Shown: positions 500 to 13,439 of the stretch, one piece after another
How the letters are laid out: each line of letters opens with the position of its first letter
How positions within the stretch are numbered: position 1 is the stretch's first letter
IMG/VR virus record: IMGVR_UViG_3300029653_000151
Coordinates: 1-13,439 of that record
Direction: 5' to 3' (one strand)
DNA length: 13,439 nucleotides
Source of the DNA: a virus
Lineage: Duplodnaviria; Heunggongvirae; Uroviricota; Caudoviricetes
The notes under the pieces: model-generated
The model's input: only the letters and a program-made list of their open reading frames with translations
Database searches by the model: none
Told to the model about the DNA's origin: nothing
Made by a program: the position numbers and the translations under genes

Positions 500-602
500 G
501 CAAGGCAACTAAGCCTGCATTAATGCCAACTTTTAGCGCACGGCTCTCTCCCAAGAGCCATTTCCCTGGACCGAATACAGGAATCGTATTCGGTCTTTTT
601 TT
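500..602 (+). ncRNA. sdsR: SdsR (RyeB)-like small RNA, about 103 nt, ending in an intrinsic terminator
   Basis: Sequence gcaaggcaactaagcctgcattaatgccaactttta...ccaagagcc...ggaccgaatacaggaatcgtattcggtcttttttt matches my recollection of enterobacterial SdsR; a sigma-S-type -10 (ctattct, 486-492) lies 7 nt upstream; a 10-bp perfect hairpin plus T8 run at 569-602 forms the 3' end. No protein-coding signal. Confidence 0.55.
569..602 (+). terminator. Rho-independent terminator (10-bp perfect stem gaccgaatac / gtattcggtc, 7-nt loop, T8 tail)
   Basis: Perfect inverted repeat 569-578 / 586-595 followed by ctttttttt (595-602). Confidence 0.8.
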
Positions 603-733
603 AATTGTATTTAAAATCAATCAGTTGCAAACGTCTTCCCGAAATTCCCCGAAATTTACTCGAATTTCTGTATTCCGGTCTTTTTTGGTTATATCACAAC
701 CAAAATACATTTAACAATCCATTTACGTTAAAA
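603..733. other. Candidate prophage attachment region (attL side), between the sRNA terminator and the integrase stop
   Basis: Integrase 3' end abuts this interval, as attP abuts int in lambda; it holds tandem cgaaatt-type direct repeats (about 640-668) and a partial copy of the SdsR terminator arm (gtattccggtctttttt, 663-679). The exact core cannot be set without the other prophage end. Confidence 0.3.
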
Positions 734-1810
734 TCAGAGTAGTAAGTACGTTTTTTCTCTCTCATCAAGATACATTTTTGTTGTCTTCTCCGATGTGTGG
801 CCAAGTAGACGCTGAGCAAATTCTTCTCCACATGTTTCTTTGTACAATCGTCCAGCCAGACTTCTGATCTCGTGAAAAGTTGGTGGGTTTTCACTGAACT
901 GGATACCTGTTAATTTTCTGGCTGCGACAAATTTTTTTGTCAGGCCATCCGGGTGAATGCTGCCGTCAGGGCTGTTTTTTCTAATCCCGGCACTGATTAG
1001 ATAATCTCCCCGGCTTACCAGGCGGCACTGTTCAACTACTGTACCAAGCCGTAGACCAGCGACAGGAAGGCTGAGTGACAGGGGGATAGCAATCATCATT
1101 CCTGTCTTAATTTGCCTGATGTGGAGACGATCATCATAAATATCACTAAAGCGCATATTCGTTATGTCTTCGCGACGTTGTCCTGTTACAAGGGCTAAAT
1201 CCATAGCTAATGGGAACCATGCCGGAAGTTGATCTGCTGCCTCCCTGATGCAGTTGTATGTCTTTAGTTTCAGTCGTTCTCTTGTAACTACTATTTTCGG
1301 TGCTCTTGTTGGCGTTACTGGATTTTGAGATATACGTCCATCAACAATGGCCTCACGAAACATATCAGACAACACAGAACGCATTGATCCTGCCATTGTG
1401 TTTTTCCCTCCTTCAATCCACAAATCAAGAAACTCGGCAATATGGCGAGTGGTTATTTCTGTCAGTAAAATTTCCCCCAATTTTTCTTTTATTGTCTCCA
1501 GTTGATTTACCCGAATTTTATAAGTATTTCTGGACACTTTTCTCCTTATAAGAATCGTTTTGTAACGTTCAATCCAGTCTGCCATAGTAAATGAGTCGAA
1601 CCCTTTAAGCTTTTCAATTAAGGCAGCAGGAGAGTAGTTTTTGTATATATAATGATTTGCTTCAATTGCCTGCGCTACTGCATCTCTTCTTGAAATTTTA
1701 CCTAGTGTAAATTCTTCTTTCGTCAGAGGGTTGCGCCAGTAATATGCTTTGTCCCTCCTTCGATATGTTAAGTTTTTAGGCAAATTGGGATCGTATTTTT
1801 TCCGCTGCAT
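734..1810 (-). CDS. int: Lambda-family tyrosine integrase (358 aa)
   Basis: Aligns by eye along its length with lambda Int (N-terminal arm-binding region PNLxYRxxxYYxxRxPxTxEEFxLG; C-terminal catalytic region with HxxR and a terminal tyrosine in TTKMYLDE). Start overlaps the excisionase 3' end by 35 nt. Confidence 0.9.
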
Positions 1811-2057
1811 GTTTTAACTTCTCCAGTAACGGACTGTCTCTCCCTTGTCGCCCATTAGGCTGATGGTGTGTTATATCGGTATCAACCTTATTTGGGTTGA
1901 TATAGAAAGCCTCCGGAACCACCCTGTAACTCCTCCCGTGTAGTTCAGGTGCAGGATAAATGTTTCCATTCCTTGCCCATCGTCTCAGCGTTGATATTGA
2001 TGGTGGGTTATCCGGATATCTGAGTTTTCCCCACGTTTTGAGTGTCACAAGATTCAT
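1776..2057 (-). CDS. xis: Excisionase (Xis-like), 93 aa
   Basis: N-terminus MNLVTLKTWGKLRYPDNPPSISTLRRWARNGNIYP resembles lambda Xis; sits directly upstream of and overlapping int. Start set at the second ATG (2057), which has AAGAGG 7 nt upstream; the ATG at 2063 is the alternative. Confidence 0.75.
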   Translation of the reverse strand: MNLVTLKTWGKLRYPDNPPSISTLRRWARNGNIYPAPELHGRSYRVVPEAFYINPNKVDTDITHHQPNGRQGRDSPLLEKLKHAAEKIRSQFA

Positions 2058-2163
2058 TGCCATACCTCTTACGATATGACCGCCAGTAAATATACAGAAT
2101 ACTGGCGGATGTGGTTGATTTTTAATAATCAGCTATGAAGTTCTAATTTGTATATAATGCAAC

Positions 2164-2352
2164 TCACGAGGACAGAAGTTTCTCGCAATTAAAATTTATC
2201 AGCTTTACTTTCTGCTCTCTGGAAACGCCTGCTTCTTTTTTTCCTGAGAGCATTTTTTCGCATTCTGATTTCGTTAATTTAGATTTTGAATATCTTGTCC
2301 AGTTAGTAGGAGTGCCACCTTCCTTTTCAATAGTGGCAGTAATTTTATACAT
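2164..2352 (-). CDS. Small hypothetical protein (62 aa) in the position of Rac ydaC/rcbA
   Basis: ORF with GGAGG 5 nt upstream of the ATG at 2352; occupies the slot between xis and ralR. Identity is by position only; alternative starts at 2364 and 2424. Confidence 0.45.
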   Translation of the reverse strand: MYKITATIEKEGGTPTNWTRYSKSKLTKSECEKMLSGKKEAGVSREQKVKLINFNCEKLLSS

Positions 2353-2539
2353 GAACACCTCCATTATTATTTCCAGTAGTTCGTTTATTCCATCTTTCGA
2401 GTGCTTCTTTTTCACTTCCACCATAGCCAGTTCGGGATTCGCATCCGTTGCATTTTGCCCGGTAATATCCTGAAATTGCTTTCACCGTAACAGATGGACA
2501 ACCACAAAACGGACATGGTTTAACATCGTCATATCTCAT
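2345..2539 (-). CDS. ralR: RalR/Lar restriction-alleviation protein (64 aa), zinc-ribbon (CPFCG..CNGC); reported toxin of the RalR/RalA type I toxin-antitoxin pair
   Basis: MRYDDVKPCPFCGCPSVTVKAISGYYRAKCNGCESRTGYGGSEKEALERWNKRTTGNNNGGVHV matches my recollection of K-12 RalR, including its 64-aa length. In-frame upstream ATGs at 2551 and 2578 are alternatives. Confidence 0.8.
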   Translation of the reverse strand: MRYDDVKPCPFCGCPSVTVKAISGYYRAKCNGCESRTGYGGSEKEALERWNKRTTGNNNGGVHV

Positions 2540-2595
2540 AATTTTTGTCATAAAAACTGTCTCACGTTGGCGGTGCATTACACCGCCAGGCTGAA

Positions 2596-3405
2596 TTATT
2601 CTTCTGAATTATCGATTACACTGTATTCCCCGGTTAATACAGAGGAGTCTGCCGGATCGATTGTCAGTGGTTCCTTTTCATCCATTGATACTGCACGCTG
2701 GATTTCAATTGAGACAGGCAGGTATTTAAACAGGCGACGAATAGCCGTTTTTTTTGCCATTTCTTCCCAGTGAGTTACCCATGGCCCGTTATTACCAGCC
2801 TTACTCTGGCTGCGCACCAGTTCAATCTGTTTGCGCGTCATAACTTCAAACTGAGTCCCTCCGTCTTTCAGTCTTGCGACAGCATAGACGTGGGTCACTG
2901 GTGCATCTTCGTTTTCTCCCGGGCGGTGTATTAACTTTTCATCAAGGCCAAATTCAAAACTAAACTCGTCACCTTCACGGACAACACGGGCTGACAGGCT
3001 GGCGATTTGACCAGAACGGCGAGCCAGATCAATCATGCCGCGATAACCAATGATTAGCTGAACGTTCTTTTTACCGCTCTTTTCGTTTTTATTACCAAAA
3101 GGCAGTAAATATGCGTGGCCGAGGGCGCTACCTGGCTCAAGGCCGAGCTGTGAACACTGAACGATCGCACTGACAAAACTCATGGTGTCACAGTTTCCTA
3201 GCGCCGGAACCTTACGAATTTCTGTGGTGGCGATACGTATCATTCGTTCAGCCGTCATATGGCGTGGGAGAGCTGCTGCCAGTTGCTCTTTCATTGATGG
3301 CTGATTAATAAAGCTGATCACGTCGTTATTTTTTACTGCTGCTGGTGCACGGTTTCCCTGGGTTTTTTGCAGATCGGCTTTTGCGATAGGTGGTTGCTTA
3401 GTCAT
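2596..3405 (-). CDS. recT: RecT single-strand annealing recombinase (269 aa)
   Basis: [36 protein letters not shown]... matches recalled Rac RecT throughout; start chosen at the MTKQ ATG (3405), which overlaps the recE 3' end. Confidence 0.92.
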
Positions 3406-6074
3406 TTGCATACTCCTTAGCCCAGCGGGGCAGTGATAACGTTTTAATAGCTGGCCATTCATCGGTATTCAGGCAGTCAGCCAGGGTCCTCAGATTGCGG
3501 TGATATTCCTGCTGGCCTGCCAGTTTTGCTTCTTCGCCCATCATGAAAATCTCAACCGGGTAACGTCCGCATTCAACAGTTGTGCTGGCAACCAGAAAAA
3601 CGAAAGTTGGCAGCACACCAAACTGTGCTTCATAACCGTCACTGTAGAATGCATCCTGAACGTGATAGCGGTAGTCGTAATAAGCCGTTTTGAATCGTTG
3701 AATATCCGCTGTGGTTTTCACGTCCATGATCCAGTGAAATTCAGGGATAATTTTGTCCGGACGGCACCGACACAAAATTCCTGTTTCAGGATCTTCCCAG
3801 TAAATTGATGATTCAGCGTGTCCGGCGCTTTCAACAAGCCATTGACCCAGCGGCAAAGCCATAACGCTCTGATACATGAGTTCAATTTTCCGGCCTTCTT
3901 CGGCAGTGATAACCGTTTTTCCTGTGCTTGCGCATTCCATCAGAAACGCTTTCTCCTCTTCTTTTCCGGCGGTTGTACGGCGGTTAAATTCAGGTGCCAC
4001 GATAAAGCGGTTACTGAATTCTTCCGGTTCAAGTACACGGCAGTGGAAAGCGGTTCCTAAATCGAGCGTTTTTGTCTTTGTGGTGTCCACTGGGGGCATT
4101 TTTACGCCACAAATACAGAGCCGGAGTATCAGCAATGTCGTCGAGCTGAGACTTACTGACACCGGGACCCGCGTGGTAATTCTCATTCGAAATTCCGTAA
4201 TAAATACCAGGCTCTATGTCTCCTGCGATTACGGGATCTGCGACTTCGCCAGTTTCATCACTGCAATCGCGATGCGGATCGCTGCCAGCATTCTCATTGT
4301 GCGGATGTTCAGGGCCTTCCATTTCCTCCGGATCTTTTTCCTGAGATTCATCCAGATTTTCTTCATTAAAGGTTTCCTGATATGTGGTGTCGCCCATCAC
4401 CGCGCCACAATCAGGGCAGTTGCCGCCACCGCTCTGACCGCGGGCGGCACAGACTTTTTCCGGTTCCTGTTGCGCTACTGGTTCAGATTGTTTCGTTTCT
4501 GGCTCATTTTTCTGTGCATTTTGGCTGTTTTGTTCCGCTTTCTGGTTGTTTTGTTCCGATTTGGGCTGGTTCTGGTTCACAGAATCTCGGGTTTCAATTC
4601 CCTTAACCCATTTCGGATCATTCGGGTCGCTAATCCCTTCAACAAATTCTCCGCGAGAGGCAGCCAGTAATTTGTCTGCATCGACAGGATTTTTGGGCGG
4701 AATGTTTTTCCGGGCTTCATAGAGTTCTGCCCGCAGTTTCTGATATTTCGCATCAACAGAATTTACCTGTGACTGAGCATCCAGCGGCTGCGTGTCCTGA
4801 TGATGTTCAGTTGCATCCGGTTCCACTGTTTCAGCCGTTGCCTGTTCATCTGCCATTGCGCAAGATGGTTGCAGTTTTTCTTCATCATCCTGTTTTTCTT
4901 CTTCTGTTACACGCTGCGGCATCGGGGCAGAGGAACGACCGCAGGCAATATCCACGATTTCTGGATCAGGGTTGGCATGATCAGTTTCAGTCAGTACTTT
5001 GTTAAGATATTCAGTGACGTGTGCGGGGATAACCTCGATCCCAATTGGTGCTTCTTTTACGGACGCAACCACGATGGCGCGGGAATAATCCAGCCCGCCA
5101 GGCATGGTGATGAATTTGTCGCGGAAAACAGAAAAGGGCGGTTTATTTTCAGCGATAATTTCCTCGACACGTTTAGCGTGTGCCGGATGAAGGTTATAAA
5201 TGTCCACGTCCATTGAACGAGCCAGTACGCCAGTGGCTACGTCGCGCGCCAGTGACGTCAGATCGTGAATGAAACCTTCGCCGCGATCGGTGAGGTTCCC
5301 GCCGCCAGCATTAGCGCCGGAAGCCGTGCGCGTGATGCGTGAAACACGATTTCCTTTCATCCACTCTTTTGTCAGCAGACCGCGATCGGTGTAGTCTGCG
5401 TCCAGGTATGCTTCGAAAAAAGCAGTCATCAGCCCCAGGCTTGAATTGCCTGGATTAGGGAAAACTCTGTCAGTATCACGCACCAGTTTGTGGAGATCGC
5501 GAATTTCCAGCGGGTCGAGCAGGCTGGTTTTGTGGGAAACAGCCAGGGCAGTAACGGCTGGTAGTTCTTCAGCTCGTGCAATGTGTAATGCCTGTAGTTC
5601 GTTGCGTGAAACGTGCGTTACCGGTTTTTCGCTGCCGTGTTGAGCAAGCCAGCGAATGGGCAGCTCCTGACCGGAAATCGGGAGTAGCATATTCTCCTCA
5701 ATCTCCGTCATGTCTTCGCCATTAACATTGGTATTGTCAGTGCTGGCTGGCTTGTCCTGCGCAGAGGATGAGGGCGCGATAAATACCATTGTGATGCCAT
5801 CTTCCCCGCCTTTTTCGTAACGGTTGCAGAATTCCGTATCAAATACGCCTTCTGGTGGAAGGTCATCAACAACGGGCAAATTGACGCGAACAGGTTTTTT
5901 AAAGTCATCTTCATCGTAGCCAGCATCGTCAATCGCAACAGCACCACGGGAGATGGCAATGGATAATTTTTTCGCTTCAGCCCAGTAGAAACCGCCTTTA
6001 ATACCGAGACGTTTTCTTACTTTGTCATTTTTTGCTTCGTAATACAGTGGGTAAACTTGTTTATCGGTGCTCAT
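3398..6074 (-). pseudogene. recE: recE (exonuclease VIII) split by a frameshift into a 681-aa N-terminal ORF (4029-6074) and a C-terminal nuclease-domain ORF (3398-4186)
   Basis: Two minus-strand ORFs in different frames overlap by 158 bp and together read as one RecE. The upstream frame reaches ...[10 protein letters not shown] then runs into nonsense and a stop; the downstream frame continues [19 protein letters not shown]... through the PD-(D/E)xK motif (RPDK...IMDVKT) to ...WAKEYAND. The switch sits at a G5 run (plus 4092-4096). Confidence 0.75.
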
Positions 6075-6143
6075 TGCTTTTTAACCTCAACTCAGATTAA
6101 AATTAATGCGAGTGATGAATAAATGTCCCAGGTTCTTCACTCA

Positions 6144-6174
6144 GGCCTGCACAGTGTGCAGGCTTTCTTTTTTT
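6144..6174 (+). terminator. Plus-strand-oriented intrinsic terminator-like hairpin (gcctgcac agt gtgcaggc, then tttcttttttt)
   Basis: 8-bp perfect stem 6145-6152 / 6156-6163 followed by an 11-nt T-rich run on the plus strand only; no plus-strand gene lies upstream. Confidence 0.5.
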
Positions 6175-6180
6175 CAGATT

Positions 6181-6450
6181 TCACCTTTTAATTTCATTGC
6201 AATCAGAGTTGCCAGAAATTCGGCTTTTTTTTTCTGCGGGCAGATTCTTTCCTATGTGCACCAGACACATTTTTTTAACACCATCGTTAAGTGTTTTAAC
6301 GTTGCCTGATGGACCGTCGATATCAACCACAGTGAATGGGGTTTCTTTATTTTCTGTCTTAATCACGTAGCCAATACGCTTTCCTTCCAGGGTAACTTCG
6401 TGAACAATGTCATCAGTAGTAACAACAGTGGCTTCATAACTGGTAATCAT
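6181..6450 (-). CDS. racC: RacC-like protein (89 aa)
   Basis: MITSYEATVVTTDDIVHEVTLEGKRIGYVIKTENKETPFTVVDIDGPSGNVKTLNDGVKKMCLVHIGKNLPAEKK... matches recalled Rac RacC; AAGGAG 6 nt upstream of the ATG at 6450. Confidence 0.75.
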   Translation of the reverse strand: MITSYEATVVTTDDIVHEVTLEGKRIGYVIKTENKETPFTVVDIDGPSGNVKTLNDGVKKMCLVHIGKNLPAEKKSRISGNSDCNEIKR

Positions 6451-6524
6451 GTTTTTCTCCTTAATTAAGGTTGAGCGAATCCCTGCCATTGCTGGCATAA
6501 ATTCAGTTTCGGATAGTCAGTTAA

Positions 6525-6695
6525 TTAAAGTTCGTGTGCCATCTGGTCTTTTTCGGCACAGATTTCACTACAATATTTTTTCATTTCCGTCGTTGGTATA
6601 ACTCCACGCATGAAATGAAGTGGTCTTGTAATGATTTTGCTTTCTTCAATTTCTTTATTGCAAAGGTGATAAGCACATTTTATTTTCTTAGTCAT
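6525..6695 (-). CDS. ydaE: YdaE-like small cysteine-rich protein (56 aa), below the size cut-off of the supplied ORF track
   Basis: Hand-translated minus strand: [56 protein letters not shown], stop TAA at 6525-6527. Its ATG overlaps the kilR stop (TAATG), indicating translational coupling. Confidence 0.7.
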   Translation of the reverse strand: MTKKIKCAYHLCNKEIEESKIITRPLHFMRGVIPTTEMKKYCSEICAEKDQMAHEL

Positions 6696-6916
6696 TACCA
6701 TGACTCCGCCTTTACAGGTAAACCATCACGACCGAGGAAGACTTTAATCATGCAGTCAGAAATGCATGTTTTTGTAGTCAGGCTACGAATATAAAGTTTT
6801 CGCTTTTTAATATTGTTTGCCGAGGCGATATATGTCCGACCTTCATGAAGAACATAATCGCCAGGGGTCACACACTGACGTGGTATTTCATCAGTTCCGA
6901 AGTGATGAGCAATCAT
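6695..6916 (-). CDS. kilR: KilR cell-division inhibitor (73 aa)
   Basis: [73 protein letters not shown] matches recalled Rac KilR; GGAG 6 nt upstream of the ATG at 6916. Confidence 0.8.
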
Positions 6917-7324
6917 AATTATCTCCATTTTTACAAATGAATTTTGTCGATGCGGTGCCTGGTGCCTCCAGGTGACGTTAACCAGTTAACAATTAACGCC
7001 GGATAATCCACCCATAACACTGATGCTTTTAACTGTGCCGCGTGCGCTTAGCCGCATTCACTGCATCACAAAATTCACTTTAAAAAGGGGCGGCAGGGCA
7101 GCCACGGAGTAGAACTGATGCCGCCAAAGACTACACATAGCAATGTCGTTATTTACAACCGGAGGCGCACTCCCACCATTTAAATTTAACAGACAAGAAC
7201 GACTCTTTATGGATATCGGAAATGCGCCTTCGTGTTGTGCCCGGTTTTATTTCACCACCTCCGGGCTTTGGTGGTTTCTGCTATACCCCTACAGCGAGAA
7301 TATTGAATTAATCCAAATAATGGA

Positions 7325-7477
7325 TTAGCAAGTATTTCTGGCAAGCCAGCGACGTGCGCCAGCTTCGGTTTTAAACGTTTTGCTTTTGGTATACGTCATG
7401 GCGGTGAATGTGCCGTCCTGATTGGGAAACACGCCACATACCAGAGATTCGTTGTTGCCAAGATCGATAGTATCCAT
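7325..7477 (-). CDS. Small Rac-type protein (50 aa), YdaG/YdaF-like
   Basis: MDTIDLGNNESLVCGVFPNQDGTFTAMTYTKSKTFKTEAGARRWLARNTC; GAGG 5 nt upstream of the ATG at 7477; first ORF downstream of the PL-like promoter. I cannot say from memory whether it is ydaF or ydaG. Confidence 0.5.
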   Translation of the reverse strand: MDTIDLGNNESLVCGVFPNQDGTFTAMTYTKSKTFKTEAGARRWLARNTC

Positions 7478-7659
7478 GTTGACCTCATTTCCCCTTAACG
7501 CCGGGTGGCGGAACGTTTTATCTACTGCGCTTTGTATCAATCAACAACTGCCGTCATGTTCGTATGCCTCAGGCTGGCTACTTAGCCCTGTTCAGTGGCT
7601 GGATAACTCGAGGTATTGTCCTGCCGTTCTCTGGTGGGGCGTTGTTTGGATATGCTTAT

Positions 7660-7710
7660 TAAACACAATACGTTTTCTTGTGTCAACACGGAATGTGTTT
7701 TGTGGTGGGT
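7660..7710 (-). promoter_or_regulatory. PL-like leftward early promoter with overlapping operator-like palindromes
   Basis: On the minus strand: -35 TTGACA (plus 7691-7696), 17-nt spacer, -10 TTTAAT (plus 7668-7673). Overlapped by inverted repeats acacaa-N9-ttgtgt (7673-7696) and aacac-N5-gtgtt (7695-7709) that resemble the palindrome between racR and ydaS. Confidence 0.5.
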
Positions 7711-7736
7711 GTCATATGATGATGGTACAAAAAAGC

Positions 7737-7759
7737 CCGCTGATAGCGGGCTGATTGGC
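7737..7759 (-). terminator. Rho-independent terminator downstream of racR
   Basis: Minus strand reads GCCCGC-tatca-GCGGGC followed by TTTTTT (plus: aaaaaa 7737-7742, gcccgc 7743-7748, tgata, gcgggc 7754-7759), 24 bp after the racR stop. Confidence 0.75.
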
Positions 7760-7782
7760 ATATTACTGTGATAGCAAGATCA

Positions 7783-8202
7783 TTACTCCGGTGGGGGATT
7801 ATCTTTAAGCCTGCCTCTCAAATATTTTTCTACATACTCATCGATTTCTTTTAGCCGGACTTCAAATAGCTCAATCATTCGTTGTTGTTCTGAGCCCGGT
7901 AGCTGGTTAAACAACTCAAGAAGTTTTCGTTGGGATTCATTTAACCACAATTCAGAAGATTCCTGTTCTCCAAAGAGGAGCTCAGGAGGAGATATGCCAA
8001 GTGCCTTTCCCAATATGACAGCGTCATGCACTCCAACATTTCTGCTGCCCGCCTCATAGTTACCTATACGCGATTGCGTCCATCCGCAGATTTCAGCAAG
8101 TTTTCCTTGAGATAAACCAAGCTTCTGCCTGCGCTCTTTAAGACGCATTGCAATTTTGTCATTGAGCCTACTAGCGGCAATTTTTTCGTTTTCTTTTTCC
8201 AT
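7783..8202 (-). CDS. racR: RacR-like XRE/cI-family prophage repressor (139 aa)
   Basis: N-terminal helix-turn-helix (LSQGKLAEICGWTQSRIGNYEAG); divergent from the cro-like ydaS across an operator-bearing intergenic region. Shorter than the 158 aa I recall for K-12 RacR, so allelic identity is uncertain. Confidence 0.7.
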   Translation of the reverse strand: MEKENEKIAASRLNDKIAMRLKERRQKLGLSQGKLAEICGWTQSRIGNYEAGSRNVGVHDAVILGKALGISPPELLFGEQESSELWLNESQRKLLELFNQLPGSEQQRMIELFEVRLKEIDEYVEKYLRGRLKDNPPPE

Positions 8203-8298
8203 TGCATCCTTGTATCACGAATCGTGATTTACATAAAACACAAAATAGCTTGACCATATAACACAAGGTGTGTTTAAAATTGTCATCGGAGGTTTTCA
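8203..8298. promoter_or_regulatory. Divergent promoter/operator region between racR and ydaS
   Basis: Perfect 15-bp palindrome atcacga-a-tcgtgat (8214-8228); second palindrome aacaca-agg-tgtgtt (8260-8274); -35-like TTGACC (8250-8255) and AT-rich -10-like taaaat (8275-8280); GGAGG 6 nt before the ydaS ATG. Confidence 0.6.
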
Positions 8299-8541
8299 AT
8301 GAACAAAATTTCAACATATCGAAAACAGCTTGGGCTGTCTCAAAGACAACTTGCTGTTCAGTTAGGGTGGATACAAAGCCGACTGGCAAATTACGAAGCA
8401 AATTTTCGTACCCCTGGACTAGAGGAGTGCAGAAAAATTGTTTCTACCCTTAATCGGCTTGGCGCTCATTGTGGACTTGACGATGTATTCCCCCCAGACG
8501 GTAAGCATAGCGAAAACAGCATAGGAGCGGTTGATTCATGA
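8299..8541 (+). CDS. ydaS: Cro-like helix-turn-helix protein (80 aa), YdaS-like
   Basis: HTH segment LGLSQRQLAVQLGWIQSRLANYEA; divergent from the repressor; stop overlaps the ydaT start (ATGA). Confidence 0.7.
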   Translation: MNKISTYRKQLGLSQRQLAVQLGWIQSRLANYEANFRTPGLEECRKIVSTLNRLGAHCGLDDVFPPDGKHSENSIGAVDS

Positions 8542-8963
8542 AAATCAGGCATAAGCACATCGAATCAGTGTTGTTAGCCCTGGCAGCCGAAAAAGGGCAG
8601 GCGTGGGTCGCTAACGCAATTACTGAAGAATATCTGCGCCAGGGGGGGGGCGGCGAATTGCCCCTTATACCAGGCAAGGACTGGAACAATCAGCAGAATA
8701 TCTATCACCGTTGGTTGAAAGGTGAAACGAAAGCGCAAAGGGAAAAAATTCAGAAACTGATCCCTGCGGTTCTGGCAATTCTTCCGCGCGAGCTGCGTCA
8801 CCGACTCTGCATCTTCGATACCCTGGAACGCCGTGCATTACTGGCGGCGCAGGAAGCGTTGAGTACGGCAATTGATGCGCATGATGATGCAGTCCAGGCC
8901 GTTTACCGGAAAGCACATTTCAGCGGTGGTGGGTCGCCCGGCGATTCTGTCGTAGTGCATTGA
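8538..8963 (+). CDS. ydaT: YdaT-like protein (141 aa)
   Basis: Position directly after ydaS with ATGA overlap; length matches the roughly 140 aa I recall for K-12 YdaT. Contains a G9 homopolymer (8642-8650) encoding Gly-Gly-Gly-Gly. Confidence 0.65.
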   Translation: MKIRHKHIESVLLALAAEKGQAWVANAITEEYLRQGGGGELPLIPGKDWNNQQNIYHRWLKGETKAQREKIQKLIPAVLAILPRELRHRLCIFDTLERRALLAAQEALSTAIDAHDDAVQAVYRKAHFSGGGSPGDSVVVH

Positions 8964-9007
8964 TTGAAATTAATCGTGCCGGATTGTTTTGTTCGGTATC
9001 AGTTAAA

Positions 9008-9426
9008 TGTAACGACGCGAGCGTTACAAGGTGAAAACAAATGGCTTCAAACTGGATAAAGCTCGAGGTTATTACGCCGGATAAGCCGGAAATATTCAGG
9101 CTTGCTGAGATTCTGAATATTGATCCAGATGCCGCATTAGGGAAGGTTATTCGCTTCTGGGCATGGGCGGATCAACAAATGATAGACGGTAATGCAGATT
9201 GTAACGCTCGCGGCGTTACAAAAAGTGCAATAGATCGCATCACTTTTATGGCTGGTTTTGCTGATGCGTTAATTCAGGTTGGATGGCTGGTCGAAAATGA
9301 CGTTGGGCTTTCTCTACCTAACTTTGAACGTCATAACGGAAAAAGCTCAAAAAAACGGGCGGTTACAAACGAGCGAGTTACAAAAATACGCGAACTGAAA
9401 CGAAAGGGTAACGCTGCCAGCGTTAC
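9008..9426. repeat. Cluster of gtaacg-N7-cgttac palindromes and gttaca half-sites: candidate origin iterons or regulator binding sites
   Basis: tgtaacg-acgcgag-cgttaca (9008-9028, upstream of the ydaU ATG); ttgtaacg-ctcgcgg-cgttacaa (9199-9221); direct half-sites gttacaaacgagcgagttaca (9362-9382); gtaacg-ctgccag-cgttac (9408-9426). Sites 1 and 2 are the same 21-mer in opposite orientation with one mismatch. Confidence 0.5.
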
Positions 9427-9829
9427 ACAAACGGATCAAAAAGCGTTACCAGAGGAAGAGGAAGAGGAAGATATAAATACTGATCTCCCCCTAAATCCCC
9501 CTCGCCAAAAACGAGCGTCTAAAAAATTCGAGCCGGAGGCTATCGAGCTGCCTGACTGGTTGCCGGAAACACTCTGGCATGAGTGGGTTCAGTTCAGGCA
9601 GGCATTGCGAAAACCGATTCGAACGGAGCAGGGCGCTAACGGGGCGATACGGGAACTGGAAAAATTCCGTCAGCAGGGTTTTACACCTGAGCAGGTGATT
9701 CGACACAGCATCGCCAATGAATACCAGGGCTTGTTCGCACCGAAAGGTGTTCGGCCTGAGACGTTGCTCCGACAGGTTAACACCGTCTCGTTGCCGGACA
9801 GTGCGATCCCGCCAGGCTTCAGGGGGTAA
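9041..9829 (+). CDS. ydaU: Phage replication initiation protein, lambda O-like / YdaU-like (262 aa)
   Basis: Sits directly upstream of a DnaC-like loader as in O-P type modules; carries internal palindromic repeats and an acidic EEEEEED stretch. Confidence 0.65.
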   Translation: MASNWIKLEVITPDKPEIFRLAEILNIDPDAALGKVIRFWAWADQQMIDGNADCNARGVTKSAIDRITFMAGFADALIQVGWLVENDVGLSLPNFERHNGKSSKKRAVTNERVTKIRELKRKGNAASVTQTDQKALPEEEEEEDINTDLPLNPPRQKRASKKFEPEAIELPDWLPETLWHEWVQFRQALRKPIRTEQGANGAIRELEKFRQQGFTPEQVIRHSIANEYQGLFAPKGVRPETLLRQVNTVSLPDSAIPPGFRG

Positions 9830-9835
9830 CAGACC

Positions 9836-10582
9836 ATGAAAAATATTGCGACAGGCGGCGTTCTGGAGCGTATCCGCAGACTGACCCCACCACATGTAAC
9901 CGCCCCATTCAGAACGGTTGCGGAGTGGCGTGAGTGGCAACTTGCTGAAGGCCAGAAACGTTGCGAGGAGATCAACCGCCTGAATCGTCAGTTGCGGGTG
10001 GAAAAAATTCTGAATCGCTCTGGCATCCAGCCGTTGCACCGTAAATGCTCGTTTGCGAATTACCAGGTGCAGAACGACGGCCAGCGATACGCGTTAAGTC
10101 AGGCGAAATCCATCACCGATGAACTGATGACCGGGTGTACAAATTTTGCGTTCAGCGGAAAACCTGGTACCGGGAAGAATCACTTAGCGGCAGCTATCGG
10201 GAATCGCCTGCTGAAAGACGGTCAGACAGTGATTGTGGTTACCGTGGCTGATGTTATGAGCGCCCTGCACGCCAGCTATGACGACGGGCAGTCAGGCGAA
10301 AAATTTTTGCGGGAGCTGTGCGAAGTGGATCTGCTGGTTCTTGATGAAATTGGCATTCAGCGCGAGACAAAAAACGAGCAGGTGGTGCTGCACCAGATTG
10401 TTGATCGCCGGACAGCGTCGATGCGCAGCGTGGGGATGCTGACAAACCTGAACTATGAGGCCATGAAAACATTGCTCGGCGAGAGGATTATGGATCGCAT
10501 GACCATGAACGGCGGGCGATGGGTGAATTTTAACTGGGAGAGCTGGCGTCCGAATGTCGTCCAGCCAGGAATTGCGAAGTGA
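9836..10582 (+). CDS. ydaV: DnaC/IstB-like AAA+ helicase loader (248 aa), YdaV-like
   Basis: Walker [16 protein letters not shown] and Walker B LLVLDEIG; 248 aa matches the length I recall for K-12 YdaV. Confidence 0.85.
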
Positions 10583-10604
10583 TTTTTACCTGGAGGAAAT
10601 TTTA

Positions 10605-11366
10605 ATGGAGACTGTTTTTGACGCACTGAAAGCAATGGGAAAAGCCACGTCGGTAGAACTGGCTGCGCGACTTGATATCAGTCGTGAAGAGGTACTGAAC
10701 GAGCTGTGGGAACTGAAAAAGGCTGGTTTCGTTGATAAAAGCGTATACACCTGGCGTGTGGCTGATAACAACGTTCAGCAGGAACAGCCAGCGCCAGAAG
10801 AACAGCCGGAAGAAACCACCACGGCGACAGTAGCGAAAATCTCAGAGTGCGATTTAACCGCAACGATTGAACAACGCGGACCACAAACGGCGGATGAACT
10901 GGCTACGTTTTTCGGCATCACATCACGCAAAGTGGCTTCAACGCTGGCAATGGCAATCAGCAAAGGGCGTCTGATTCGCGTGAATCAGGGCGGTAAATTT
11001 CGTTACTGCATACCGGGTGCTGATTTACCGGCAGAGCCGGAAGCTGCATCCGTAGCGGAAACCGATGGTAAAGCCTTTCCTCAGCCAGCAGGTGTTGCGT
11101 TACCAGTACAGGAAATGATGGCACAGGAAGAAATGAAAACAGAAATCGTGGAAGACATTGTGAGGTTACAGCCATCGATCACCGAAATGAAAGCAGATGA
11201 CCTGATTCTACCATCGCTGCATGTGGCTAACCGCGAGCTGCGCCGGGCGAAAAGTGATGTCCAGAAGTGGGAGCGAGTCTGTGCTGCGCTGCGGGAGCTG
11301 AACAAGCACCGGGATATTGTTCGACAGATTACTGATTCTTCCCGCCGTGTTGTATCGGAAAAGTGA
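10605..11366 (+). CDS. Hypothetical phage protein (253 aa) with two winged-helix-like segments, an acidic linker and a C-terminal coiled-coil-like tail
   Basis: GGAGG 7 nt upstream of the ATG at 10605; segments [30 protein letters not shown] and [32 protein letters not shown] look like winged-helix DNA-binding units. Possibly the intact counterpart of ydaW; not verified. Confidence 0.55.
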
Positions 11367-11381
11367 TTGCCGGAGGCGCTT

Positions 11382-11774
11382 ATGGCAAAAGTATTTACAC
11401 CAGAAGAGCGGGAAGAAGTGAAGGCGCGCATTGTGGAATTCGTGCGCCTGAGCGGACGAGAAACTTTTCGACAACTGGCAGATAAAACGGGTGTCAGTAA
11501 GACCGCTATTCGTCGTTTATCTGGTGCGCTTGCGGCCAGTGGTGATGTCTGGCTCTCTGGTTGCGGGGTATTTCCATCAGAGCAGGCGTATCGCGTATGG
11601 CGTAAGACACCGGAGAAGGCTGCTGACCCGACACTGATTCGAAAGTTACCTGACGGAGAAATACGTCGTTACAACAGACGGCAGAACATAATTTGTCGTG
11701 AGTGCCGCCAGAGCGAAGTTATGCAGCGTGTGCTGGCGTTCTATCGGGGAAACTTTCAGGAGGTGATGGAGTGA
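11382..11774 (+). CDS. Hypothetical phage protein (130 aa) with a possible HTH and a CxxC pair
   Basis: GGAGG 5 nt upstream of the ATG at 11382; stop overlaps the next gene's GTG start. Confidence 0.55.
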   Translation: MAKVFTPEEREEVKARIVEFVRLSGRETFRQLADKTGVSKTAIRRLSGALAASGDVWLSGCGVFPSEQAYRVWRKTPEKAADPTLIRKLPDGEIRRYNRRQNIICRECRQSEVMQRVLAFYRGNFQEVME

Positions 11775-12067
11775 GGGTCAGAGTTTATATTGCCGGTCCA
11801 ATGACGGGATATGAAAATTTCAACCGTGAGGCGTTTCACAAGGCGGAAGAGGAACTGAAACGGGAAGGGCATACCGTCTTAAACCCGGCAGTACTTCCGG
11901 ACGGGCTGACACAGCCGCACTACATGGATATTTGCATGGCAATGATTCGTTGTGTGGATGCGATTTACATGCTGAATGGCTGGCAGCGGTCAGCGGGCGC
12001 TAAGGCAGAGCTGGCACTGGCGGAGAAACTGGGGCATGCAGTGATTTATCAGGAGGTGGCTCAATGA
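11771..12067 (+). CDS. DUF4406-like protein (nucleoside 2-deoxyribosyltransferase-like fold), about 98 aa
   Basis: Motif VYIAGPMTGYENFNREAFHKAEEELKREGHTVLNPAVL is typical of the DUF4406 / deoxyribosyltransferase-like family as I recall it. GTG start at 11771 with GGAGG 7 nt upstream; the ATG at 11801 is the alternative. Stop overlaps the next start (ATGA). Confidence 0.55.
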   Translation: MRVRVYIAGPMTGYENFNREAFHKAEEELKREGHTVLNPAVLPDGLTQPHYMDICMAMIRCVDAIYMLNGWQRSAGAKAELALAEKLGHAVIYQEVAQ

Positions 12068-12525
12068 GAGAGGTTAACTATGAGGCGCTTCGTGAGGCAG
12101 CACAAAACTATCAGTCGACGCTGGCGTGGTATCAGGCTATCCCGGACAGCCCAAATGCTGAACGGGATTGTGATGCGGCTCTTGCTGCGTTTAAGCGTCA
12201 CATCCGTCATCGGGAAGCGGATATTATCGCTGATTTGCTGGATGGACTGGAAGAAGCAAAATCACAACTCAAAGAGCAGCGTGAGTATTACGAAGGCGTT
12301 ATCTCTGATGGGAGCAAGCGTATTGCTGAACTGGAAGCGCGGGAAGTTCAATTACCGACTCGCTACGACCTTCGATATGGACACCCGATAAATGCAGATG
12401 AGCGACATGTCATGATACCTAAAGAAAATGGCAGTTGGCTTTACCTGATTGACCTAGAACACGCATTACGCGTCTCTGGCATTCGCATCAAAGGAGAGGA
12501 GCATGGAAATAAAACCAGAGGATGA
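12064..12525 (+). CDS. Hypothetical phage protein (153 aa) with a central coiled-coil-like region
   Basis: ORF translationally coupled to its upstream neighbour (ATGA); no recognisable motif. Confidence 0.5.
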   Translation: MREVNYEALREAAQNYQSTLAWYQAIPDSPNAERDCDAALAAFKRHIRHREADIIADLLDGLEEAKSQLKEQREYYEGVISDGSKRIAELEAREVQLPTRYDLRYGHPINADERHVMIPKENGSWLYLIDLEHALRVSGIRIKGEEHGNKTRG

Positions 12526-12859
12526 GTTAAGCAATATCGTTTTATTTCCGGTAAAAGAGGATGACCCTCGTAATCAGGTTAATTTTCTTTATGAGCCATC
12601 GGAAAGACCATATTGTCATCACGCCTCTGTCCGGGTTGACGAAAAAGAGCGTCAGGTCCGCTGTAAAATCTGCGGTGCAGTTGTGGAGCCATTTGACTGG
12701 ATGCTCTCTGTGGCGAAAAGAGAAACCAGACTGGCAGATGATGTAAGGCACTTGCGCCAGGAGGAGCGGGAAAGGCGAAAAAATATAGAAAAGCTAATTC
12801 AGATTGAGCGTAACGCGAAAGCGCGGATACGCAGGGCGACAAAATCCAGAACTGAATAA
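12503..12859 (+). CDS. Hypothetical phage protein (118 aa) with a zinc-ribbon-like C..HH..CxxC segment and a basic coiled-coil tail
   Basis: GGAGAGGAG directly upstream of the ATG at 12503; CHHASVRVDEKERQVRCKICG motif; overlaps the 3' end of the preceding ORF. Confidence 0.5.
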   Translation: MEIKPEDELSNIVLFPVKEDDPRNQVNFLYEPSERPYCHHASVRVDEKERQVRCKICGAVVEPFDWMLSVAKRETRLADDVRHLRQEERERRKNIEKLIQIERNAKARIRRATKSRTE

Positions 12860-12982
12860 TTAAATTTAGCTCTGTTAAAAATTTAATCCTTAACCGGAGG
12901 GATTTCTGCACCCTCAGAACATCAGGAGGCCGTCCGAAAGGGCGGTAGTGAAATGCGAAAATTCAAAATAATTATTGAAACG

Positions 12983-13439
12983 TAGACTGGCCCCCTGAAT
13001 CTCCAGACAACCAATATCACTTATTTAAGTGATAGTCTTAATACTAGTTTTTAGACTAGTCATTGGAGAACAGATGATTGATGTCTTAGGGCCGGAGAAA
13101 CGCAGACGGCGTACCACACAGGAAAAGATCGCAATTGTTCAGCAGAGCTTTGAACCGGGGATGACGGTCTCCCTCGTTGCCCGGCAACATGGTGTAGCAG
13201 CCAGCCAGTTATTTCTCTGGCGTAAGCAATACCAGGAAGGAAGTCTTACTGCTGTCGCCGCCGGAGAACAGGTTGTTCCTGCCTCTGAACTTGCTGCCGC
13301 CATGAAGCAGATTAAAGAACTCCAGCGCCTGCTCGGCAAGAAAACGATGGAAAATGAACTCCTCAAAGAAGCCGTTGAATATGGACGGGCAAAAAAGTGG
13401 ATAGCGCACGCGCCCTTATTGCCCGGGGATGGGGAGTAA
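12983..13439 (+). mobile_element. IS2 (IS3 family) insertion sequence, partial: terminal inverted repeat, leader and orfA; the rest lies beyond the window
   Basis: Starts with tagactggccccctgaatctccagacaaccaatatcac..., which I recognise as an IS2 terminus; followed by the InsC ORF. IS2 is about 1.3 kb, so it runs past the window end. Confidence 0.85.
13074..13439 (+). CDS. insC: IS2 OrfA (InsC) transposase DNA-binding subunit, 121 aa
   Basis: [58 protein letters not shown]... matches recalled IS2 InsC; stop TAA at 13437-13439. The frameshift-fused OrfAB would continue beyond the window. Confidence 0.85.

Follow-up and report, generated by a model that had tools for sequence, protein, structure and literature searches.

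A probably genuine one-base insertion in recE of a Rac-like lambdoid prophage from human-gut Escherichia coli

The gene recE, which encodes exodeoxyribonuclease VIII (RecE), is divided between two overlapping open reading frames in the 13,439-nucleotide stretch of DNA analysed here as a whole (the window). This arrangement raises the question of whether the downstream frame is a nuclease gene in its own right, the remnant of a gene broken by mutation, or the result of an error in the sequence. The locus is considered, with good confidence, to carry a genuine, recent and lineage-specific one-base pseudogenising insertion in the recE gene of an otherwise unchanged lambdoid prophage. Frameshifts that kill a gene in this way are ordinary and already known in kind; this one affects a well-known prophage gene and creates no new stand-alone enzyme.

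The recE locus and its reading frames

The features of the locus are as follows.

3398 to 6074, minus strand: recE (exodeoxyribonuclease VIII) of a Rac-like/lambdoid prophage, a frameshifted pseudogene whose intact allele encodes 891 amino acids
4029 to 6074, minus strand: ORF A, 681 amino acids, comprising RecE residues 1-661, a 20-residue out-of-frame tail and a TGA stop codon
4029 to 4091, minus strand: out-of-frame end of ORF A as read from the translation, 20 codons and the TGA (4031-4029)
4092 to 4096, minus strand: frameshift site, five G on the plus strand (G5), equal to five C on the coding strand (C5)
3398 to 4186, minus strand: ORF B, 262 amino acids from the ATG at 4186, ending in KEYAND and a stop codon
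4099 to 4097 (ATG) and 4090 to 4088 (GTG), minus strand: candidate internal starts of ORF B, neither with a Shine-Dalgarno (SD) sequence
2596 to 3405, minus strand: recT, encoding the partner annealase (RefSeq annotation of identical DNA; Pfam PF03837), with its own SD sequence, AAGGAG

The original prediction identified the gene as recE and ascribed its split to a single extra base. Its coordinates and readings were all correct, both frames lying on the minus strand, and the gene assignment was confirmed by a megablast search of 5,426 complete E. coli genomes, in which 2677 bases of the window fell on annotated recE. The annotated gene is present at 100% identity in four complete genomes and spans 2676 bases in them compared with 2677 in the window. 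Base-by-base alignment bore out the one-base insertion, with G5 in the window against G4 in the intact gene. The coding strand of the window reads AAA AAT GCC CCC AGT GGA, whereas the intact allele reads AAA AAT GCC CCA GTG GAC (KNAPVD). Deletion of one G from the window restores an uninterrupted RecE of 891 amino acids that is identical to the annotated protein WP_103687675.1.

The frames of ORF A and ORF B join at the C5 run. ORF B starts with MRITT, and its native RecE reading follows the ATG at 4099 (233 amino acids) or begins at the GTG at 4090 (230 amino acids). The latter is the start picked by gene callers, and its 230 amino acids are the last native RecE codons. The ATG at 4099-4097 is in frame with downstream RecE solely through the extra base, as had been proposed. 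The N-terminal Exonuc_VIII domain (Pfam PF06630) was detected in ORF A at residues 52-189 (128.3 bits, cut-off 25), and the Pfam profile search gave no match to PF12684 in ORF A. The sequence shows the predicted ORF A product to be an N-terminal part without the catalytic centre. It holds the first 21 or so residues of the nuclease domain, and residues 606-635 of the crystallised domain remain in it. In the RecE family a single frame codes for both domains. Here one additional base interrupts that frame behind codon 661, which makes the locus a pseudogene of the RecE family. A 264-amino-acid open reading frame on the plus strand (3876-4670), antisense to recE, was rejected as spurious because it arises from the extra G alone, which fuses two shorter antisense frames (4061-4669 and 3873-4148 once the sequence is repaired).

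The gene adjoins and overlaps recT in the early-left operon of the prophage, as is typical of the family; the start of recT overlaps the stop of recE by 8 nt. According to the RefSeq annotation of identical DNA, the minus-strand order is repressor region, DUF1391, kilR, ydaE, a hypothetical gene, recE, recT, ralR, DUF1187, xis and int, with yebY beyond int. In E. coli MSB1_4I (NZ_LR898874.1), the closest complete genome, the prophage runs on into a full lambdoid late region with terminase, portal, capsid, tail and lysis genes. This gene order and the MSB1_4I late region identify the locus as an early-left operon of the Rac type, carried by a lambdoid prophage that is largely complete.

Several other elements were identified in the window. 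The RalA antitoxin sRNA (Rfam RF02694, 222.7 bits) is located opposite the ralR toxin gene (RalA at 2168-2346 on the plus strand, ralR at 2345-2539 on the minus strand), and RalR/RalA is a type I pair known from Rac, placed just downstream of recT. SraC/RyeA (minus strand) and SdsR/RyeB (plus strand) were found by Rfam at 462-606, between yebY and the integrase end; because these sRNA genes adjoin the integrase end, the prophage appears to be integrated beside ryeA/ryeB. A match to the DicF antisense sRNA (RF00039, 60.9 bits) is present at 7088-7139 on the minus strand, between kilR and the DUF1391 gene. The end of the window (about 13074-13439) lies inside an IS2 element of the IS3 family, which occupies the same place in MSB1_4I.

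Origin of the extra base

The whole 13.4-kb window matches MSB1_4I end to end. From position 500 to 13439 the sole difference is the extra G at 4092, and the first 500 bases, which form the chromosomal yebY flank, differ by four substitutions and one A7/A8 difference. CEA601S also carries G4 at the frameshift site. The intact WP_103687675.1 allele, present in MSB1_4I, CEA601S and three other complete genomes, is nucleotide-identical to the window over the whole gene save this one base, and the identity of MSB1_4I to the window extends over the whole prophage part. The genomes with this allele have C4 (GCC CCA GTG), whereas the window has C5 (GCC CCC AGT G). The G5/G4 change is a deterministic sequence difference, and chance is therefore not at issue.

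With an 81-nt probe that had the run at its centre, matches were obtained at 1821 places in 1733 complete E. coli genomes. None of these places matched at 100% identity or carried the extra base; identity was at most 98.8%, and the best matches (98.8%, 80-base span) differed from the window by the one-base gap alone. The C5 22-mer AAAAATGCCCCCAGTGGACACC had no matches in IMG/VR, the JGI metagenome contigs or the GTDB representative genomes, and these collections thus supplied no independent carriers. Because none of the 1733 genomes has the extra base, the shift is neither conserved nor programmed, and the site is no recurrent hot spot. Programmed frameshifting was rejected on this ground.

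The exact 681-amino-acid product is recorded on four metagenome contigs (ENA, JGI/IMG), the longest of 203,942 bases. Three assemblies carrying G5 were retrieved.

ENA ERZ918259, contig k127_52278: MEGAHIT k127 assembly of run ERR912081, 100% identity to the window over 13109 bases
Logan assembly of ERR912081: 100% identity to the window over 4418 bases
ENA ERZ27256485, contig k119_47755 (50.7 kb): MEGAHIT k119 assembly, 100% identity to the window over 8090 bases

At least two of the three derive from one run, ERR912081. The project PRJEB9576 is the XieH_2016 gut shotgun cohort of UK twins.

A sequencing or assembly artefact, in which the true DNA would have G4 and an intact recE and a homopolymer miscall would have been carried into the contig, is now unlikely; a sequencing error at the homopolymer had been offered as an option. 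The extra base does sit in a homopolymer, the classic spot for an indel error, and it is a singleton among the 1733 complete genomes and absent as a 22-mer from the three collections searched. Two of the G5 assemblies share a run, and another assembly, GCA_900448355.1, bears an artefactual frameshift three bases away. Against this, G5 is present in all three assemblies, two by MEGAHIT and one by Logan, although assembler or k value differed between them. Contig names of the MEGAHIT type (k127_ and k119_) imply short reads, and in short reads indels in 5-base runs are rare. Comparison of 12.9 kb of prophage with the closest relative revealed no second indel, whereas the error-laden GCA_900448355.1 contains about 25 one-base indels in 8 kb. 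An assembler artefact or a long-read homopolymer artefact is unlikely because three short-read assemblies carry G5 and there is no other indel. Judged from these sequence comparisons, the extra base is very likely a true mutation.

Two apparent carriers of the split gene were rejected. In the NCTC assembly GCA_900448355.1 the gene caller reports the same 230-amino-acid C-terminal product (STF45420.1 / UniProt A0A376LNA3), but there the recE split comes from one A too many in the adjacent A5 run and not from the C run; this error-laden assembly therefore does not support the C5 allele. The run in question is located at 3990-3996 of UGAB01000002.1, three bases upstream of the C run, and reads A6 for A5; both 'exonuclease VIII' records are by-products of this error. 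The Logan contig SRR7411251_20216, which also yields a 230-amino-acid product, has C4, and its gene call was cut by the end of the contig.

Other length differences and broken frames were observed in these relatives. In CEA601S, PGAP marks the DUF977 gene as frameshifted: the G4 run of the window (11565-11568), also G4 in MSB1_4I, is G5 in that genome. This represents another homopolymer frameshift within the same prophage lineage. The hypothetical gene at 6174-6450 (minus strand), just upstream of recE, is annotated by PGAP as 'frameshifted' in both close relatives, and since its sequence is identical in them it is a second, older broken frame in the operon. At 372-377, downstream of yebY, the window and CEA601S have A7 and MSB1_4I has A8; because CEA601S also has A7, this is a natural length polymorphism of the chromosomal flank.

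The nuclease domain in the downstream frame

The original prediction placed the nuclease domain in the downstream frame. This was correct for the PD-(D/E)XK catalytic residues, all of which are present in ORF B (H652, D748, D759 and K761 in K-12 numbering), but the domain itself is cut at PF12684 profile position 25/26. The profile is matched at positions 1-222 in the intact protein and at positions 26-222 in ORF B (87.6 bits). ORF B aligns with positions 35-265 of the PDB 3H4R chain (E = 8e-158, about 5 substitutions), which has 265 residues, namely RecE 606-866 and four extra. Because the His at chain position 51 is His-652, a catalytic-domain residue of RecE named in a review, ORF B supplies K-12 residues 636/637-866. 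It begins 30 residues inside the crystallised domain (606-866) and covers about 88% of it. The RecE nuclease domain has been described as residues 564-866, with a crystal of 606-866 and an active E588 fragment of 279 amino acids (review and later paper), and the documented active or crystallised fragments begin at residue 564, 588, 602 or 606. The suggestion that ORF B is close to a minimal RecE in size, and could be active alone, is not supported by these boundaries.

The homology search retrieved a large number of natural relatives that consist of the single domain (about 270 amino acids) and cover 95-100% of the intact-domain query. Such RecE-like nucleases occur widely in Enterobacterales, Aeromonas, Pseudomonas and Orbaceae, and the motif SNEDYHxGxGxSKSQLD is invariant in them. 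Alignment of the intact RecE domain with 15 of these homologues identified the segment missing from ORF B as the best-conserved part of the domain. The lost motif is SNEDYHxGxGxSKSQLD..PA, and ORF B starts after SNEDYHxGxGxSKSQLD. The lost segment contains 11 invariant positions (N5, Y8, H9, G13, S15, K16, S17, L19, D20, P26 and A27) and six nearly invariant ones (S4, G11, Q18, I22, W31 and A35), so ORF B does not constitute a complete single-domain nuclease. The catalytic residues are invariant in the same alignment (H52, D148, D159 and K161). In lambda exonuclease, Arg-28 in the N-terminal part binds the 5'-phosphate and is required for processivity. By analogy, the N-terminal motif of RecE may play a role like that of the Arg-28 region.

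Translation of the nuclease domain from the ATG at 4099 had also been proposed, and this start has no SD sequence. The SD:anti-SD energy is -1.5 kcal/mol at both ATG 4099 and GTG 4090 and -3.5 kcal/mol at ATG 4186, compared with -6.7 kcal/mol for native recE, -8.6 kcal/mol for recT and a mean strand background of -2.07 kcal/mol. The other genes of the window range from -4.1 to -10.7 kcal/mol, with -5.2 or stronger in all but one. None of the ORF B starts thus has an initiation signal of its own as expected for a stand-alone nuclease gene. Coupling by termination and reinitiation is unlikely because ribosomes translating ORF A stop 60-70 nt past those starts. Leaderless or SD-independent initiation of ORF B may occur.

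It is very unlikely that the locus works as a split gene in which ORF B, translated from ATG 4099, GTG 4090 or ATG 4186, supplies a nuclease acting with RecT. The presence of all four catalytic residues and of most of the crystallised domain in ORF B speaks for such a gene, as do the activity of C-terminal RecE fragments on their own (the truncated RecE used in recombineering) and the natural occurrence of single-domain relatives. However, ORF B starts 30 residues inside 606-866 and 48 inside E588, lacks profile positions 1-25 of PF12684, and is without the motif that every natural relative of about 270 amino acids retains. It also has no SD sequence before any candidate start, is poorly placed for coupling, and belongs to an allele that is conserved in none of the 1733 genomes. 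Since a ribosome-binding site and the first 30 or so residues of the domain are both missing, no active exonuclease is expected from ORF B; the predicted inactivity of the 636-866 fragment is drawn from conservation and domain boundaries.

Equally little weight is given to a leaky correction, in which the P-site tRNA-Pro would slip by +1 from CCC to CCA in GCC-CCC-AGU and yield traces of full-length RecE. The geometry permits this slip, as GUG would enter the A site and the wild-type KNAPVDTT would be restored exactly. In E. coli, CC[C/U]-N sequences are the classic places for +1 slips, which reach up to 1% at codon 2, and CCA is a better pairing partner than CCC for the cmo5UGG tRNA-Pro; unprogrammed +1 frameshifting, however, is typically below 0.003% (PMC4519876). 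The site in recE is an internal codon without a known stimulator, its next codon (AGU) is not very rare, and the arrangement is conserved in no relative, which rules out a programmed device. Because the allele is a singleton, the slip could only be an accidental leak. The 681-amino-acid product might conceivably reassemble with a C-terminal fragment translated at a low level, since the domain is split directly behind its conserved N-terminal motif and the two pieces together hold every residue of the domain. That recE is not fully dead, by either slippage or reassembly, is regarded as highly improbable. If slippage did take place, recE would be a leaky gene sensitive to tRNA modification or EF-P.

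Consequences and comparison with known RecE systems

The preferred reading is that of a broken gene. C4 would have become C5 on the coding strand of recE in the Rac-like lambdoid prophage of a human-gut E. coli strain, likely by replication slippage in the short homopolymer. Ribosomes starting at the normal recE ATG would read 661 native codons, shift frame, add 20 wrong codons and stop at 4031-4029. The catalytic part, with H652, D748, D759 and K761, would be stranded in the downstream frame, and no active exonuclease would be expected. The recT gene would keep its own SD sequence and lose any translational coupling to recE, and it may suffer polarity from the approximately 630 untranslated bases ahead of it. 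RecET-type recombination from this prophage has probably been lost in the strain, and recT expression may drop.

The locus should be annotated as a frameshifted recE pseudogene and not as two genes; its importance is small beyond that. Database entries for a 230-amino-acid 'exonuclease VIII' are by-products of such splits. Real and artefactual homopolymer mutations can be told apart by counting the other indels relative to the nearest relative and by checking independent assemblies.

The gene resembles recE of the Rac prophage of E. coli K-12 (UniProt P15032; PDB 3H4R) in several respects. Both have the same domain order, PF06630 in the N-terminal part and the PD-(D/E)XK domain PF12684 in the C-terminal part. 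The four catalytic residues are shared, and ORF B aligns end to end with 3H4R. The recE gene overlaps recT in both, with ralR/RalA, xis and int downstream. The repaired allele of the window encodes 891 amino acids compared with 866 in K-12. The prophage of the window differs from Rac in that it adjoins yebY and ryeA/ryeB and has a relative with a full late region. A further difference from K-12 is the loss of the recE frame behind codon 661, the counterpart of K-12 residue 636.

The RecE truncations used in recombineering (E564, E588 and E602/E606) are also C-terminal fragments; they share the catalytic core with ORF B and function together with RecT. Because they begin 30-72 residues upstream of ORF B, the conserved motif at the N-terminal end of the domain is retained in them, and unlike ORF B they are expressed from engineered ribosome-binding sites. 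The natural single-domain nucleases of Hafnia, Xenorhabdus, Proteus, Aeromonas, Serratia, Pseudomonas and others share 53-64% identity with the RecE domain and cover 95-100% of residues 626-891. They start about 5 residues before GIYYDISNEDYH and thus include the segment that is missing from ORF B.
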